A stretch of DNA of 59,958 nucleotides, the filler included, from Sluysia triapertura (taxonomy: Eukaryota): the NCBI GenBank assembly GCA_046118255.1. It is 5 parts of 5 records of this genome, joined end to end, with 100 filler letters (N's around TTAATTAATTAA, not from the genome) between each part and the next. Parts side by side here need not be neighbours in the genome. Positions count along the whole stretch, not along the records: positions 37,743 to 49,012 come from JBJNIA010186580.1; 4 more parts are not named here. One strand, written 5' to 3'. The position numbers were made by a program, and so were the translations under genes. Below the pieces are notes generated by a model, which worked only from the letters and a program-made list of their open reading frames with translations, did no database searches and had not been told where the DNA came from. Each line of letters opens with the position of its first letter. Within the stretch, counting starts at the first letter, position 1. This document shows positions 28,640-57,670 of the stretch, in pieces.

Positions 28640-29815
28640 TTTATTTCTTTGACACCTAATAAAGTCTGTTATTTTTAATTGCCTAGATGCTTTTTCTTCT
28701 TGAATTTCATCAGTCAGATCCCATATTTTGTTCGTCTTATCAGGAATATTAGCTTGAAAGTGTTTTTCCAGTTGTTTTTTGCATACTCATAGACTTCGTA
28801 TCTGTCATTACTGCATCTTCTACTGCTTCAACAGAATTATCATTTGTTTCCTCTTCTTCAGAACTTTCTTTTTCATACTTCTCTACTTGATCAAATAAGA
28901 GATGTTCATCAAATTTTGGATTAATCTCAAACATGGAAAATCATCACATTCAGCATTCACTTCTTTAATATACGCTTTTTCGAAAGACTTGGTAAGACAA
29001 TTAAAGATAGTCGTTGGTTTTACACTATTCCATTCTTTCGAAATCCAAACCACTGCTTGATACAAATCAACCATATATTTTGTGTAACATTATTATCTAA
29101 ATTAAAATTCATTGACATGCTCAAAAATGTTTTATATTAGTCTTTGAAACTTTTTATAATACCTTGGTCAAGAGGCTGAATAGGAGATGACGTATTTAGT
29201 GGGAAAAAGAATAATTCGATGTTGCTCAATTCGAAGTCTTTTGAGTGAATATGTGCGTTGTCTAACAATAATAAAATTTTCCGCTGCTCTGTTATACTGT
29301 TCAAATATTTTAACTTATCTTGAAATTTGTTAACATCACCCACGACTTTGTATTCCAAAGGTAGTTTTTCTATGTACAACTCTTTAAAACAACGGAGTTT
29401 CTCCGATCTGCCTATCACTAAAGGCTTTAACTTTTCTCCTAACATATTTACTCCCAAGAGTAGAGTAATTCGATTTTTAGAAAACTTACAAATTGCCTTA
29501 TCCACTTCAGAAATTGAATATGTTCGTTTAATGAACATTTCCAGAATAGTCAAGTTTCGTCACAATTATAAACATTTCTATCTTCATATTCTTATAACTT
29601 TGGCATAGACAATTCTTAAAATTAAGAATATACCTTTCATCCATGGTTTTTGATTCCCCAATAATTCTTTTGACGATATCATATGCCTGGAAAGAAAAGA
29701 ATTAAGCCAACAGTTTGATGCTTTAAAATCATGATTTCCTAAGTGCTATGCTAATTCTAATTTCTTCTGCTGTAATCCATCACCAATGATACTGATATTT
29801 CTTGTTCTCTGAATC
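28640..29815 (-). mobile_element. Tigger/pogo (DDE_1) transposase pseudogene
   Basis: FKASNCWL; KNRITLLLGVNMLGEKLKPLVIGRS; RKILLLLDNAHIH; FFPLNTSSPIQPLDQGIIKSFK; WNSVKPTTIFNC. Confidence 0.9.
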
Positions 29816-37642: not shown

Positions 37643-37742
37643 NNNNNNNNNNNNNNNNNNNNNNNNNNNNNNNNNNNNNNNNNNNNTTAATTAATTAANN
37701 NNNNNNNNNNNNNNNNNNNNNNNNNNNNNNNNNNNNNNNNNN
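37643..37742. other. Artificial contig spacer
   Basis: N44-TTAATTAATTAA-N44. Confidence 0.97.
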
Positions 37743-40700
37743 ATTACTTCGTAAGGTCCTTTAAATGGTTTATGTAATTTTGGAGAATATCCTGGTTTCG
37801 CTATTGGATAATCTACTAATACTTTGTCTCCTATTTTAAAGCTATGTTCATTTGTCTTTTTATCATAGTTATCTTTATAGGTTTCTTGAGTATAGCGTAT
37901 TTGTAATCCAGCGCGTTTCCATGCGTCTTGTAAATTTTCTCTCATAATGGTTACATATTATGGGGTTTCCATATATTGTGATGAAGGTGGAACCCAATCT
38001 AAATCTACTGGCATGTTTTAATACCTGCCATACATTAAATAGAATGGTGTAAAATTAGTAGCAGGATGTACCGAACTTCTATATGCAAATAAACATGGTG
38101 ATATATATAAATCCCAATCCTTCTGCCTTTCATTTACATATGATTGTAACATATTTATTAATGTTCTATTAAACCTTTCTACTAATCCATCTGTCTGTGG
38201 ATGGTATGGTGATGCATATATTTTTAAAATGTTAAATATTTTTGCAACTGACTTTATTACTTCACTAATAACATTGGTTCCTTGGTCAGTTAATGACTTT
38301 CTTGGAGTTCCGCATCTATATATTACTTTCTCTACTAATATCTGAGCTACTGTTTCAGCCTTTTGATTTAGTATTGGATATGCTTCTGGCCATTTCGTTA
38401 AATAATCAGCGAATGCTATTATATACTTATTTCCATTTGTTGTTTCTGGCAATGGTCCCATTAGATCCATTGCAGTGAATTTCATTGGAGAGAGTGGTAT
38501 AGGAATAAGTCTTAATGGTACTTTTGTTTTCACTCCAGTATTATTTCTTCTACAAGATATAGCACAATTCTTACACAATTTTTTAATTTCTTCTTCCATA
38601 CTATCCCAATAATATTTATTTTTTATTCTTGATAGTGTTTTAATTGTTGACAAATGCCCGCCTAAGTGACAATCATGGTACTGTATTAATAATGGCGTTA
38701 TTGAAGATTTCGGTACGATTGTTTTCCATTCATCTTTTGAATATACCATCTGTTATTGAAAGCTTGGTCTTCACTTAACAATCCTTTTGCTATTGCTTCG
38801 AATGCATATGGCATTTCTTCATCTTCTCTTTATTATTTCTTTTGGTTCTTCAGCTTTTCCCGAAATTGGCATTATTTGTATAAAATTGACATTTCCCTGA
38901 TCATCTGTATTTGTTAGTCTAGACATACAATCGGCACCATTGTTCATTGACCCTGGTTTGTATATTATTTGTAAATCAAATTCTGCTAATTTTGTAAACC
39001 ATCTATTTAATCTACTTATATCATCTCTGCGGTTGTATAGGTATGTTAGTGGCTCATGATCCGTAATAGATAGTGTCTAAATAGTTTACATGCGCTTACT
39101 TTCGTTAAACATTCTTTTTCAATTGAAGAATAATTAATTCAGCTTTATTTAGTCTCCTACTTCATAAGCTATAAAACCTTCTAAATTTTCTTTATTTATC
39201 TGCCCCAGAATTGCTCATATTGCAAAGTTGCTAGCATCTGTTGTTAGTGTAAATGGTTTGCTCATATCTGGGAACATTAATATTGGTGCGGTTGTTAATC
39301 TTTTCTTTAATTCGATAAATGCCTTTGATTGTTCTTCAGTCCATTTAAATATCACATTCTTTTGTGTTAACATTCTTAATGGTCTAGCTATTTTCGCAAA
39401 TCTTCTATAATATTTTGCATTACATTATCTGGTGGTTATGTACCTTTGTGTGACATTACATGACCTAGAAATTCAATCTGTTCTTCTGCCCATACACATT
39501 TAGTCGGTTTAATCTTTAATCTTGCTACTTCTGGTCTTTTTAGTGTGTGTTTTCAATATCTTTTGAAAATATTATTATATCACCAATGTAAACCATAACA
39601 TTCTTACAACCGGACAATAGGAAGTTCATACATCTTTGGAATGTTGCCGGTGCACCTGTTAATCCAAACGACATTTTTTCGCACTCATATAATTCGTCTC
39701 CACATGAAAATGCTGTTTTATGTTTATCCTTTTCAGCTACTTTAATTTGCCAATAACCACTCTGCAGATCTAATGTGGTACAATATTTAGCGTTTCCTAA
39801 TTTATCTAACATTTTATCAATTCTTGGTAATGGAAATACATCTTTTCTTGTAATTTTGTTTAATTCTCTGAAGTCAATACAAAATTTCATGGTTCCATCT
39901 TTTTCTTGACTAATAGTACTGGTGATGAAAATGGATAAAACCTTGGTCTGATAACTCTAACCTTTTTCATTGTATCTATTTGATCTTTCATCTCCTGTTG
40001 AATGCATAATGGAATTCTGTAAGGTTCCTTTCTAATTACTTTATCTTCTATTAATGGGATTTCATGTTTTATTATAACTGAATCTCCAGTATCATATTTA
40101 TTTCTTGCAATTGCCCAAAGATATCTATAGATAAATTTATATAATGTTTCTTTTTGTTGTTTAGTTAAATTCTTGTTCTTTATTTGTATCTCTTCATAAT
40201 CTTCTTCATCTTCAATGTTTCTTTGTAGTCTTATATTCCTACTTCTTGGTTTATCATCTGACACCATATTTATTTGTGTTTGAAATTTATAATTAACTAT
40301 TTCTCCTAGTGTTGTACCTGCATATAGCCATTTATTTTCATTAATATAGTTTATTATTCTTATTGATATATTTCCATCATTAATCCTACTTATTGAATCA
40401 GCATTTCCTATATTTAATTTCTCTTGATTATTTTTCGAAGCTATAAACATTATTGGACCATTTTTTAAACTGTTTGTTTTTCCTGGTATTATGCATTCGG
40501 TTCTTTTTAATAACCAACGTGGTTCTTCTAATACAACATCATCTTCATCAATTGGTCTATCTGTATAAGTATCCATTAATTTTGCTTTACTAAAATCCAA
40601 TGAGACTCCTTTTAATTGTGATAGTACATCCATACCTAATATCATGTCTTCTGGACATTTTCTCATTACTCTGCATTTTATTTCAATCTTGTTTTGGCCA

Positions 40701-40933
40701 ATTTCACATAATATTTTTAGTACTCCTAAAATTTCAATTTTATCTCCAGTTATTCCTGTTAAATATGAATGTTGTTTGGCTAAATTATTTAATTCTTCAG
40801 TAGTTAATAATGATTCGCGTATTAATGAAGCAACTGCTCCTATATCAACTAAGGCAGGTAACATTCTCCCATTAACTCTCATGCCTACCACGTGTCTTCT
40901 TGCACTGTTATAATTATTATTAGCACAAATCAT
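37743..40933 (-). mobile_element. pol: Ty3/Gypsy pol pseudogene (protease-RT-RNase H-integrase)
   Basis: PR: ALVDIGAVASLI..DMILGMD. RT: FCIDFRELN, FPLPRID, LDLQSGYWQI, KTAF, FGLTGAPATFQR, YIGD (degenerate YxDD). RH: FTLTTDASN, TDHEPL. IN: HDCHLGGH..C..C, MDLMGPLP, TDQG, PYHPQTDGLVERFNRTL, C-terminal KGPY. Frameshifts and stops present. Confidence 0.95.
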
Positions 40934-42700
40934 ATAAACTACATGCCTTTGAGGGTATAATACTTGTTTTTCTTCGTTGACTGGTTCGATATATATTGTT
41001 TGTAACGTGATTTCTTCAGTTTGTTTTTTCTCTTTCTTTAAAGCATTTAATTGAGCATGGGCGTGATGGTGTAGCAGAAACTTAGCTAAAAATGGAAAGC
41101 AACCGATTATTAACTTCCATGTAAAACCTGATATTTTATAAATACCTACAAGTGAAAATATTCGAGAGATTATAAGTGTGAGATTATTACATGTATACCT
41201 ATTAAACCCGAGAAAGCTTGACCTATAATTAAGACATTTCCCAAAATTTGTTTTAGAGTATTGTGTGCTGTTTTCTTAAAATGGTCTGGTCCTAATAATA
41301 ACTCAAAATTTATTTTACCATCTTTTTCTACTATTGCTTTATCAACTACATCTGTAAATACTTTAGATCTTTTAATAGGAAATAGGATTTCATGCCAAGC
41401 TGCCTGAATGTCTTCATTTGAAGAGATTCCAAATCTTTGAATGTTTTTTGCAGCTGAAAATTTTAATTTTGTTTTTAATTCTGTTAAACCTATAATTTCT
41501 GGTGTTTTGACTTGACTTCTATGTGGTAAAAATATCCAAAGATTATCATCGATTTTGTATTCCGGAGCCATTACATTTGAGCAGTGTAGCGTTTTCGGTT
41601 TGAGTTTATTAGTTTGCATAATAATTCTCGTGACTAATTCTAAATAAGTGTTTTGGTTTTTGTAGATTACATGTAATTCATTGGTACATTCGCTTTCTTG
41701 CCTTATTTGTACTTCTAGTTTTCTACATTATGTATATAAAACTTCACCCATTAACCTACCAAATACTCCTTCTTCTAATGGGAGTAATGGTGCTACTAAG
41801 TCTGGGTTAGTTATTGCTACAGCTAATATTTCTTTATTTAATTGGCAATCCCTCGCTATCATACCTTAATAAACTTTTTCTAATGACATTAGTCCTAAAT
41901 GATAATAAAAATCAATTTTTTTATTAAAATATGTATTTAATTGTAAATTCTTTGTGTCTATTCCTTTCTTGGCTTGTAGTATTGTCTTTTCTGATAAGTA
42001 TATGTATTGATAATTTGTTTCGGTGATCTCTTGTCCGCATCTAATCACTAATTTCTTTGAAACAAATATTAATCCATCTTCTTCTTTATTTGCCATTAAA
42101 ATTGTTGGAGTTTCGATTTCGTGAAGTCTTTTCCTTTAACGTGTATCTAAATTATCCTTATAAATTTGTTTTTTATTTATTTCTTCCACAGCTAATTCAT
42201 CGTCATTTTGGTACATGAATTAAACTTAATTTGTTTTAGAAATATTAGAGGGCATTGATATTTTTCCAATTCATATATTAGTATAGATTCAACAGTGTAA
42301 AAACTTGTTTGATCACTCCTACAAAAAGGTAAAGACATCATGGTACCTTTTTCCAAATTAAAACTTTCGTTAAAAGACTTTAGACTTACTACATAGGTTT
42401 CTTGAGCTACAACATTGTGATAAATCTTTCCTTCATATTATATTGATCCTCTTTACATTACCAGCTGTTCTGACATTATAAATTATTTTTTCATTGTTTT
42501 TAATTCTTAATTTATCTCCTTTATTCAAACTTATATATCCAGTTTCGAATGTATCTCGACAATTATTCGGTGATATATTAAAAGTTTTTAATATATTCGA
42601 TATATCAATAATTGAAGAATGACGGTGGTGTCCACAATACCAATTAACCACAGATCCTTTGACTAAGCATTCTCTAATTTTACGTTTACAAAAATACACT
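40934..42700 (-). pseudogene. env: Env-like class III fusion glycoprotein (chuvirus G / herpes gB-like)
   Basis: ECLV..WYCGHHRHSS..NCRDTFETG..TAGNV; IRCGQEITETN..NLQLNTYFNKK; RDCQLN..AITNP..GRLMGEVLYT*C..ECTNELHVIYKN..VTRII..CSNVMAPEY..W; GISSNEDI..EILFP; then membrane-proximal and TM segments. The Cys/motif order matches chuvirus-type glycoproteins as recalled, not searched. Confidence 0.75.
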
Positions 42701-42945
42701 GAAATGAAATGTTTAAAGTTTAGTTAATGAGGGTGATAACAAGCACCATTTATGAAAAACAGAAATGAATAAACATCTGATAAATACTGTGAATAAAGAT
42801 TTATTTAAGGAATTGTTTTTGTAATCAATACATGATTTTGAATTACATATAAAAGATTAATTTTGTTGTATATTTCTATAGCAACTTAACTACCAAGTCT
42901 CTGGTTGCTAGAAATAAAGATTGTTGAATGATTGGTCTTCTAAAA

Positions 42946-43528
42946 TGTAATTACGACCAACTCATATAATTGTAAAACTCAGCTTAGTTAATAACAATAA
43001 TAGAAATGTGAGAAATAAGTAAAGAATAAAGTTAATAGAATAAAAGTTGATTTAAGATATCGTGAGTTCACCAACCTACTGGACTTACCAGCGAGGGCCA
43101 GCCGTTGGATTTTGCGTAAAGGAAAAGTAACTAAAGTCTCGAAAGTTTAACAGTATCTAAATTCTCTAACGGTATATTTTAAACGTCTGGAGGTTTTCCT
43201 TACTGTGTCTTTTAATTGTCTAGAAGTTTTATCCATTTAATTTTATAGATATTTTACATAAATCCTATAATAAGGATTCTTTAAAAAAACAATTTATAAT
43301 AATTCCTCTACTGCTTACTTTAATATTAAAAGACAATGTTAACCTTATAAAGAATTTATTAATTACTAATTTAGAAAAATACAAGTTTACAGTAATGTAT
43401 AATAATAATACAATAATTTACAGGAATTATCTTTTGTAATTCCGAATAGTAGAATTTTATAAATGATTTTTCAGTGATCTATTACAAGATCACAAATTTT
43501 ATTAAAAGAATTTACGTAATATTTTACA
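42946..43528 (-). repeat. LTR-like repeat (TG...CA, ~580 bp)
   Basis: The minus strand starts TGTAAAATATTACGTAAA..GATCTTGTAATAGATC and ends GTAATTACA. Homologous to 51719-52256. No TSD or PBS found. Confidence 0.6.
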
Positions 43529-44157: not shown

Positions 44158-44950
44158 TCATAAATATATAATTGATTTTAAATAAAAACAAATTAAATTA
44201 TAACTTGGCATTACATTAAGATTCTGCAAACTCTTGAAGTGTACTGTCGATGAGCCAATGTCCGACAACAGGACGCTAACTAAAGAGATTGTTTCAAAAA
44301 TATCGTGATTGTAGGTACAGTTTCCGCCACATCTGGAACACTTTCCGCTTTGTGCTTTTGCATATAAACACAAGCCGAATTTATAATATCTAGATCGATG
44401 AAGATAAATTTGGGATTAACTATTTGATAACTCATTGTCAACATAATGATGTTTTGAGTTAACAACATTTGAACTGAATTTACACATGTCTTTTGTTACT
44501 GGGTCAATTTTACTTGTGATAAAAACTGAATCTACGTCGACAAGGAAGTGTAAACTACTATATTTTATTATTAATAAAATTTTCAACGAAATATGATGCA
44601 AGATTTGATGTTTAATTAACATAATTTCAATATTGGTTACTTTATGCATAAATAGTTTTATAACTTTATTGAAATTCACCTTTGTGGAATTAACTGTTAA
44701 GTATCCACTACCTGGAACCATATGAAATATACTTGCGTCTAACATAAGTGTTGATACAAATTGTTCTAACATTGTAGCATGTATATGAAGATCGTTGATG
44801 GTTACTCCAAAACCAATAAATTGTGGCGAATGTCGATAATGATTACTTGTGCATAAAGTATTTTCGCTTAATTGATGTCATTACTTCATCAGCTTTACCA
44901 GATTTGATACACTTTGAATCTTTTGAATAATTGACCAATTGATGCATATT
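44158..44950 (-). pseudogene. Unidentified disrupted host-like coding sequence
   Basis: About 260 codons of protein-like composition with one in-frame stop (44416) and a frameshift. Family not recognised. Confidence 0.35.
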
Positions 44951-49112: not shown

Positions 49113-49370
49113 TTTCTTCCTTCTTGTTGTTCATCTTCATATTCATTTTCATCATAATCCTTTTGGTTTCTATAATTACAATTAACATGTCCTTTCCTAT
49201 TATCATTAAACCTTACTTTTCTATTTGGGCTTTGATTTTGTCCCCTTGCTTTATTAAGATCTTGAGTGAAAACATTTTGCCTTAATCTTCTACAATCTCT
49301 TGCATAATGTCCTTTTCTATTACAATTGTCACAGATTAATTCTCCATCTATATTAGTTTGAGTCTTATTA
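49113..49370 (-). mobile_element. gag: LTR-retrotransposon gag C-terminal fragment (CCHC zinc knuckle)
   Basis: GELICDNCNRKGHYARDCRRLR. An R/G/N-rich gag-like decayed frame also lies at 48550-49010 across the gap. Confidence 0.7.
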
Positions 49371-50034
49371 ATTTTTTAACGTAATTTTATTTATTTTTAT
49401 TTTTATACAATTGTTTATAATTCAATGTATCGGGATCATAACCAAATGCTGATATTGATATGTTAATGTATTTTTGGTTTATAATTTGAAAAATTTGACA
49501 AGTGATTTGAAGCAGCATTTGATTCACCACATAATCACTTCAACAACACTATATGTCCTAGGTGCATTGTTATTATGATTTTCTTTATGCCTGTGTATCG
49601 AATTCTGGAATGTGTATCATCAATTCTATCTTTATTTATTGAGTCCATTTGTAGATTTGTTACTGATTAGTTTTTCTCATTTAATTCGTTTTTCTTCAGT
49701 TTTAGAATCATTATCTTGCTCTTCTGATATATTAAAATTGCTTAATTCGTAACGATTCTGTTACGGAATCCAAAGCAGCAGTTAATTCAGGTTCTTGAGT
49801 ACTATTCAATGAATCATTTAAATGAGACAAAGAAAAAGAAACTGCATTTTCAACTTCTTTGGTTTGTGATTTATCAGATTTAGCTGCATCTCGATAAACC
49901 AGCTTTTTTGTGTGCAATTGTTATGTCTGTTTCAATTTCATTTTTTACATTAAGTGAATTAGGATGTTTTAACATTGTCAAGTAATCTCGCTTATTCTTC
50001 CACTAATAAAATCCATGATTTTCATATGAATATG

Positions 50035-50195
50035 TTACCATTCTTTAGTGTCATTAGCAGATGCAGCAGTATAATTGTTATTGCTGGAATGGGCATTATT
50101 AGTATTGTGATTATTGTTGACAGAACCGTTGTTAAGAGCAACACCGTATTCTGATTGCTGTGAAGTTGTATTATGATTAAATTTTGATTGGTTTC

Positions 50196-50232
<37 letters not shown>

Positions 50233-50998
50233 TCATAAACCACTACTGTTACTCTTGTAATTATTTGTTATTGGTTTACAAGAAGATGGATCTAAAATTC
50301 GATCATCTTGGACACAGTATGAACCTTTGTCGTGACGACAGCAGCGATAAATGAAACATGTGATAAGAGTTAATAATAATCAGCCAACCAATGAAAATCC
50401 GACAATAAGCCAGATATTGATTGAGGCAGTTGTGGTGTTGGTAGAAGTGGGTTTATTGAGATTGTGATAAGGGGAAAACGGTGATGCGGGGGGAACTAAG
50501 GCGTTCAAATTTGAAGATGATTTAACATCTTTTTCGTTTTTGGTAACACAATTTTCTGATTGTTTGTTTAAGTAACCTGGAGTAGATACTGGGAATGAAG
50601 GTGTAATAACAAGTTTCACAATCCCATCAGATGTAAATTTTTTAAATAGATAATACTGATGAGGTGATATAGTAGAAGAGTAACGAGGATTGACTACAAA
50701 TATTAGTTGGGTTTTTGAGGTATTTTGTGTCGATCACGATTAATTTGTTCTTCAGAAAATAAATATTCGTGAGGCTGTATTTTAAAATTGGGCAAGAAAT
50801 TAAGTTCTATATAAACTCGGATCGATTTAAATGACGAATTCCTGGATAACTGATATTGTCGACTATACCGGCTAGTGGGATAGTCCTGATAATTACCCAG
50901 AAAATCCAGTATTTGTGTAATTGGTGTATCCAACATTGTAATTTCTTGATCCAACATATATTTGCTTTTGTTTATTAAAATAAGTTGCAACACGACCC
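50035..50998 (-). pseudogene. Neurexin 3' exon pseudogene (end of last LamG/LNS domain, TM, 4.1-binding motif, PDZ tail)
   Basis: CAG|GRVATYFNKQKQIYVGS..GFSG*LSGL (cf. GRQLTIFNSQ..FQGQLSGL); TM IWLIVGFSLVG*LLLTLITCFIY; RHDKGSYCVQD (cf. RDEGSYxVDE); ANDTKEW* (cf. KEWYV). Several stops. Confidence 0.8.
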
Positions 50999-56760: not shown

Positions 56761-57621
56761 TTATTGTATGGGAAAATAATTTTGTTTCTGATTTAATGGT
56801 TGTAGAATCTCATAAAAATTTCTGTCTTCTAGCACTTGTTCTTGCACCACATTCGGTGGATATTGATAGTAAATCTGATGTTCTGATGGTTTGTGAATAT
56901 AATTAATTTGATTTTGATGCGTCAGCGATTCTGGAACGTATTCTTGTTGAATAGTGCATTTATTTGATTGGTAGTTGGGTACACAGTTGTAGTATGGATG
57001 ATTGTACACATTTTGTCGAGAACAAGCAATATCTTGAGGATAATAGCAATTATAATATGAATTGGGAATCTGGAAGTATTGATTGGGATAAAATAACTGC
57101 TGATTTGATATCATTTCTGAAGAAATTTCAGGAAACATCGGTGCTTTGTTTTCTTTGTTGTTTGTTAAAAGGTCATAACAAATCGTATCTGACAAATCGT
57201 AACTAGAATCGGATTGGTAGGATTTCTTTATAATTTTATTGGGATCCCTGAATTTCCTTTGACGTCTTAAATAACCACCCTGTTCAAACATTTCTTTTGA
57301 ATCTTTATGAAGGCTCCAATAATCTCCACGACTTCCAGCTGGTTTTTCGGGTAAATTCAAATCTGATCCAAATATGTATGGCAAACTTCGTTGTCTAATT
57401 CGAACGAAACAATCGTTAAAAGATAGAGAATGCCGAATTGAATTTTGCCACTTCTTATCTTTCAGTTTATAATACGGATATTTCTTTCTAATGCATTCGT
57501 AAATATCTGAAAGCCGACACATTCTCGAAGGGGATTCATTAATTGCATTTGCAATCATAGCTACAAAACTTAAATTCGGTTTATCTAAATTCTCATTTTT
57601 ATTAATAGTTTTATTTGTCAT
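56761..57621 (-). CDS. Forkhead-box transcription factor, FoxA-like, intronless, 286 aa
   Basis: KPNLSFVAMIANAINESPSRMCRLSDIYECI..KWQNSIRHSLSFNDCFVR..GDYWSLHKDSKEMFEQGGYLRRQRKF. RHSLSFNDCF and YLRRQ are FoxA-type signatures. The ORF is uninterrupted with a Q/Y/P/N-rich C-terminus. Confidence 0.93.
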   Translation of the reverse strand: MTNKTINKNENLDKPNLSFVAMIANAINESPSRMCRLSDIYECIRKKYPYYKLKDKKWQNSIRHSLSFNDCFVRIRQRSLPYIFGSDLNLPEKPAGSRGDYWSLHKDSKEMFEQGGYLRRQRKFRDPNKIIKKSYQSDSSYDLSDTICYDLLTNNKENKAPMFPEISSEMISNQQLFYPNQYFQIPNSYYNCYYPQDIACSRQNVYNHPYYNCVPNYQSNKCTIQQEYVPESLTHQNQINYIHKPSEHQIYYQYPPNVVQEQVLEDRNFYEILQPLNQKQNYFPIQ

Positions 57622-57670
57622 GTTAAAGTTTGCTTTACTTAAGTAAATGTTAATTGCAACTTATGACAGG

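Follow-up and report, generated by a model that had tools for sequence, protein, structure and literature searches.

The window analysed here, a 59,958-nucleotide stretch (filler included) of the genome of Sluysia triapertura (GenBank assembly GCA_046118255.1), carries a decayed retroelement on its minus strand at positions 42693-37745, where a chuvirus/gB-type glycoprotein (Env; Pfam family PF24664) is followed by protease (PR), reverse transcriptase (RT), RNase H (RH) and integrase (IN) domains (Table 1). The env gene is directly contiguous with pol, upstream of it and on the same strand, which places it within the 2 kb allowed for GAG-ENV-POL errantiviruses. An earlier, sequence-only reading had proposed a Gypsy element of this kind, in which a class III fusogen precedes pol and runs in frame into the protease. 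The order was borne out, with the PF24664 pieces at 42693-41173 and the pol domains after them, and so was the stop-free frame that had been traced to 39887: it spans 41275-39887 (462 amino acids, aa) and contains both the sequence quoted by that reading and the aspartic protease.

The fusion itself holds for part of the glycoprotein in this copy. The second hydrophobic stretch and the cytoplasmic tail, the last ~75 residues of Env, are in frame with pol and run into the protease, whereas the ectodomain and the main transmembrane (TM) helix lie in another frame, with the break near 41175; the full fusion is seen in relatives only. The upstream frame (41173-42204) has three internal stops and terminates at the stop at 41170-41172. 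It matches its closest relatives at 39-43%, its hydropathy peaks at 1.86, and 41173-41727 alone matches PF24664 with E 6e-29. The Env signal peptide and the first ~45 residues are unrecognisable 5' of 42693. On the pol side of the break, the 79 residues that head the frame (41176-40940) show 46% identity over 67 aa to the tail of P0130, one of the relatives described below (E 6e-18 among 132 proteins), and 93 open codons would be expected by chance, at the local off-frame stop density, with p about 1e-5. Judged by homology, this stretch is a true Env tail.

A fold comparison, which the sequence-only reading had suggested together with an RT phylogeny, was made on a model of the relative P0008 (pLDDT 79.5; 40% identical to the window in the main block). 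Against the PDB, the model matched the gB of a herpesvirus (herpes simplex virus, HSV) with E 4e-14, at a TM-score of only about 0.32, and it matched the glycoproteins of chu-like viruses with E 8e-42. Ten of the 12 aligned cysteines of P0008 are kept in the window. On the strength of the PF24664 matches and of this model, the window glycoprotein is classed as a class III, HSV/gB-type fusogen, as had been claimed. A sequence search of the PDB returned gB in 29 of 30 rows; none of these was below E 0.12, and the search is therefore not counted as evidence alone.

The pol region is assigned to the Ty3/Gypsy (Metaviridae) type from its PR-RT-RH-IN order and from an RT that is closest to Ty3/Gypsy RTs, in agreement with the sequence-only reading. 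Ty3 RT ranked first among PDB entries for the window RT (E 2.7e-32), followed by entries at 2e-17 and then 2e-9, which we take to be of caulimovirus and foamy type, respectively. The named RT relatives are of the Gypsy/297 type, and the others are unnamed. The BEL/Pao-type protease family, presumably the one called Peptidase_A17, was not among the Pfam matches of the window or of its relatives. The copy is dead, as had been stated from its DIG protease and YIGD RT: the blocks aligned to the relative P0003 contain six frame changes and 15 stops.

Table 1. Parts of the element and adjoining features, in window positions
Feature	Position	Strand	Evidence or remark
Scaffold gap	37643..37742	.	3' end of element (any post-integrase domain, 3' LTR) unassembled
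Integrase: H2C2, core, GPY-type C-terminal part, cut by scaffold gap	37745..38752	-	PF17921, PF00665; translation
RT connection + RNase H, stops inside	38957..39418	-	PF17919 E 3e-17; PF17917; tblastn
Reverse transcriptase core, frameshifted at both ends, motif YIGD	39421..39908	-	PF00078 E 9e-22; best PDB match Ty3 RT E 2.7e-32
Aspartic protease, one domain, motif DIG, Asp codon 40846	40607..40897	-	PF13975 E 3.7e-7, PF00077
LYP motif, 38 residues before catalytic Asp; late-domain-like	40952..40960	-	Env-PR linker comparison
Env second hydrophobic stretch + cytoplasmic tail, frame shared with protease	40961..41182	-	E 6e-18 to P0130 tail; collinear with P0005 through tail + PR, E 5e-27
Env ectodomain core + membrane-proximal region + main TM helix	41173..42204	-	PF24664 244-562 E 1.9e-44 (stops read as X)
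Env ectodomain, second piece, other frame	42220..42437	-	tblastn 29-38% to relatives; iE 3e-8
Env ectodomain, first recognisable piece (starts ~70 profile positions into Env)	42451..42693	-	PF24664 71-148 E 1.2e-7; profile of relatives' Env N-halves iE 7.9e-17
Repeated DNA directly 5' of env	42700..43315	.	Summed contig depth 2e4-1e5 vs 361-2,927 beyond 43316
Gag-like CCHC knuckle remnant beside another gap	49121..49375	-	PF00098 E 1.4e-4; tblastn to P0009 E 3e-5

Relatives with Env and Pol in one open reading frame

Word-indexed homolog searches with the junction and with an Env piece returned nothing at E 0.001, but a full HMMER scan with a 185-aa Env piece did find relatives (126 matches). 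Among the 20 best Env matches, 11 have a protease after Env within a single open reading frame (ORF), as do 14 of the 126 overall; Pfam confirms it in 12 of these 14, and the other two calls come from a profile built from the same relatives' proteases. The remaining nine of the top 20 are six fragments that do not reach the TM helix and three proteins (P0008, P0016 and P0017) that end 38-83 residues after it. Most of the weaker matches are fragments or stand-alone glycoproteins of about 650 aa, the latter without a protease.

Env, PR and RT share one ORF in six relatives (P0001, P0003, P0012, P0112, P0127 and P0130), all of which reach the integrase except P0012, which stops in RNase H. The ORF of P0003 (2627 aa) is continuous throughout and encodes, in order, a CCHC knuckle, a signal-like segment, Env, TM, PR, RT, RH and IN. 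A signal-like segment stands ahead of Env in relatives, and 4 of the 12 examined have a CCHC knuckle ahead of both. One strong hydrophobic segment at the TM position is found in all 14 fused relatives, a second one reaching 1.6 in only one of them. From Env through IN the fused relatives are collinear with the window, where the TM helix lies about 109 aa before the catalytic Asp, compared with 108-368 aa in relatives. The proposed Env-Pol order is thus the one that relatives keep within single ORFs; both a pol-env order in relatives and a lack of class III similarity were looked for, and neither was found.

The RT phylogeny, made by a quick method from 128 rows and 125 columns with no rows left out and no BEL/Pao reference among them, places the window RT in a 13-row group with five of the six fused relatives (SH-aLRT 94).

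Some relatives carry further domains. Tandem protease domains (two to four) follow Env in many of the fused proteins (P0001, P0002, P0007, P0009, P0019 and P0127), compared with one in the window copy, and P0127 has extra ankyrin and C2H2 matches. Past the integrase, P0001, P0003, P0112, P0127 and P0130 continue with another signal-like segment and a TM-anchored domain, whose counterpart in the window would fall in the gap at 37643-37742. P0003 is labelled at NCBI as 'hypothetical protein [Flavobacteriaceae bacterium]' and is probably animal DNA in a bacterial metagenome-assembled genome.

A YP motif in the Env tail

The LYP that the first reading had quoted as part of the junction is, by sequence comparison, a conserved tail motif of fused and stand-alone Env proteins alike. 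Of the 14 Env-PR linkers, 10 contain [LIMVH]YP (shuffle mean 0.93, maximum 5 in 5000) and 12 contain YP in any form (shuffle mean 3.4, maximum 9). Among 50 stand-alone glycoproteins, 23 have [LIMVH]YP within their final 70 residues (shuffle mean 2.1, maximum 8) and 8 have P[ST]AP there (shuffle mean 0.24). The YP pattern was picked after the sequences had been viewed and the related linkers are not independent, so that the shuffle statistics overstate its enrichment. From the motif to the catalytic Asp there are 38 residues in the window and 31-57 in 9 of 10 relatives. These comparisons suggest that pol was joined directly behind an ancestral Env end.

Late domains of the YPxL class bind ALIX, and those of the P[ST]AP class bind TSG101. 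The YP-bearing tail contains a putative late domain and may drive budding; the window motif reads LYPQ, and the canonical leucine is absent. No publication linking late domains, ALIX or the endosomal sorting complexes required for transport (ESCRT) to the envelope tails of chuviruses or retrotransposons was found, an absence that is weak given that subscription papers were mostly outside the search. An assembly model in which Pol is tethered to an Env tail bearing a late domain was likewise not found in the literature searched.

Proposed polyprotein and its alternatives

Taken together, the data point to a dead, 5'-interrupted Ty3/Gypsy endogenous retrovirus with a chuvirus/gB-type Env tail in frame with the protease, whose intact members would be made as one Gag-signal-Env-TM-PR-RT-RH-IN polyprotein; we put the probability of this reading at roughly 0.65. 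The domain order, the open frame from tail to protease in this copy and the single-ORF layout of relatives are observed directly.

Several points weigh against it. The copy is broken within the TM region, and the full continuity from Env to Pol is seen in relatives and not here. Among the sequences covered, this genome yielded no intact copy. No gag or signal peptide adjoins the 5' end of the element. Three of the 20 top relatives stop 38-83 aa past the TM helix. The RT tree is a quick one of few columns, its support lies slightly below the starred level, and the fused relative P0112 falls outside the group. The TM-scores to gB are low and were obtained with P0008 rather than with the window protein, and the YP pattern was chosen post hoc.

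In an intact member, the internal signal would direct Env into the lumen of the endoplasmic reticulum, and signal peptidase would free a cytosolic Gag. The TM helix would bring the chain back to the cytosol, so that the Env tail would at first hold Pol at the inner membrane face. Clustering of Env could concentrate and activate the protease, whose cleavage directly after the YP motif would free Pol, in line with the earlier proposal that Pol is released by its own protease. The motif would likely recruit ESCRT (ALIX-type) for budding. In a single chain where Env separates Gag from Pol, packaging of Pol as a Gag-Pol fusion would be impossible. A broader and tentative proposal, which we hold to be somewhat doubtful, is that GAG-ENV-POL errantiviruses generally load Pol on the cytosolic tail of a class III fusogen and keep a late-domain-like YP motif, inherited from stand-alone ancestors, at the Pol join, with Env, and not Gag, driving both budding and enzyme loading. 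What could matter here is the assembly route, since a membrane-tethered Pol and the tail motif are testable predictions for the particles of invertebrate endogenous retroviruses, the transmission route of which is described as elusive in the parts of PMC13524379 that were covered.

Among the alternatives, the single ORF may be real while a spliced Gag-Pol message that leaves out env, or a separate start, supplies most of the Pol, in which case tethering would matter little. Equal amounts of Gag, Env and Pol (1:1:1) would be unusual, and retroelements make far more Gag than Pol. Nevertheless, the frame from tail to protease is open in 14 relatives despite very different linker lengths, which suggests that read-through is used, and we regard this alternative as unlikely.

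Env might instead stop right behind LYP in this family, with pol reached in another frame by ribosomal frameshifting, so that the open junction of this copy would be an accident of decay. The contigs of read run X1, possibly the source sample itself, bear on this question and count against the polyprotein: in at least three of them the sequence near 40955 differs in length by one base, and these make up a depth of 122 out of 263.5 at that place, or about half. The difference lies at the junction and may leave room for a frameshift separating Env and Pol in this family. Of the length-variant rows of this run, 12 of 49 were covered, and a compensating change may lie elsewhere. The YP motif also lies shortly before the end of stand-alone glycoproteins, and P0008, P0016 and P0017 stop within 83 aa of the TM helix. 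However, the nearest relatives by both Env and RT read through, the distance between YP and the catalytic Asp falls within the normal range, and the final residues of P0008 diverge from the conserved tail in the way expected of a break. A frameshift at the junction is therefore considered improbable.

That the junction arose by a single recombination event between two elements, or by misassembly, is very improbable: the assembly is a draft with gaps on both sides and none of the contigs listed spans the whole stretch, but the relatives that match the window collinearly all the way from Env to IN are also its nearest by RT, which indicates that Env and pol travel together and mainly refutes this explanation, and the summed depths of env and pol are similar in run X1. 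That depth is 2e4-3e5 over 37750-43315 and 361-2,927 beyond; it is no copy number, but it shows a much repeated family.

Published elements and neighbouring features

Whether the arrangement had been described before was left undecided by the sequence-only reading. Chary and Hayashi (eLife 2026; PMC13524379), in the parts covered here, describe 'ancient errantiviruses' from Nematoda, Bryozoa and Platyhelminthes whose Env is solely of the HSV/gB type and whose gene order is GAG-ENV-POL. Their supplementary file 1 lists nine flatworm elements; the six that come from Schmidtea mediterranea have 1-215 copies. Ty3/Gypsy pol, gB-type Env, env before pol and a multicopy state are shared with the window element, which differs in being decayed and in that no adjoining gag or long terminal repeats (LTRs) were found, its 3' end being unassembled. 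The main text contains neither 'fused' nor 'polyprotein', and the parts covered are silent on processing and tail motifs; figures or sequence files may show the fusion. The flipped order of env and pol in nematodes, also shared with the window, is credited there to Sacco et al. 2022 (J Gen Virol, doi 10.1099/jgv.0.001739); the hosts in that work are nematodes, and the clade need not be the same, given that GAG-ENV-POL elements are stated in PMC13524379 not to be monophyletic. A search for 'gag-env-pol' retrotransposons found only PMC13524379, a weak absence in a literature whose subscription papers were mostly not covered.

The gene order is already published, and the locus is one decayed copy of a published class. 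Non-canonical nematode endogenous retroviruses are reportedly built as one continuous gag-env-pro-pol ORF. With the chuvirus-type glycoproteins (PF24664, Monjiviricetes_fusion) the window shares the family and the fold, and the stand-alone matches share the YP-bearing tail. Such glycoproteins are carried by BEL/Pao elements (Dezordi et al. 2020, as cited in PMC13524379), whereas the pol found here is of the Gypsy type. Drosophila gypsy-type errantiviruses likewise combine a Ty3/Gypsy pol with an envelope gene, but, unlike the window, they have the order gag-pol-env and an F-type Env (PMC13524379, as far as covered).

The window is AT-rich (G+C 20-31%) and holds four scaffold gaps. No LTR pair or LTR-like repeat was detected, the 3' end of the element falling in a gap, and no tRNA gene was detected in the window. 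The repeated DNA at 42700-43315 gave no gag, signal peptide or Pfam match. The idea that 42700-43300 is a decayed signal peptide and Env N-terminus was rejected: there was no profile match, and the frameshift-tolerant score of 17.4 (background mean 17.2) was reached by 33 of 88 control tiles. A likeness of the same region to a SUMO protease, noticed by eye, had no Pfam support. On the minus strand, the stretch 42698-42832 has at its end a TTTCAG that resembles a splice acceptor and is flanked by a 6-nt direct repeat, with Env homology starting directly after the stretch; it may be an intron-like piece, a short insert or a chance feature of AT-rich DNA.

The CCHC remnant at 49121-49375 resembles the Gag of fused relatives, including P0009, and lies 6.4 kb upstream of env, past other DNA and a gap; it may be associated with this element copy. 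Also on the minus strand, two adjoining broken frames at 44161-44877 show weak matches to PCMT (E 3.5e-5) and to an UNK-like CCCH finger (E 1e-5), at a summed contig depth of about 400-600, and are probably a repeated pseudogene or cargo. A TM segment and tail like those of neurexin/syndecan (PF01034, E 0.018), with internal stops, at 50000-50733 (minus strand) is likely a host pseudogene or a misread exon. Further minus-strand features are a remnant of a DDE_1 (pogo/Tigger-type) transposase at 29140-29559 (E 5.9e-20) and a single-exon ORF for a Forkhead transcription factor at 56764-57660 (E 6.6e-27).

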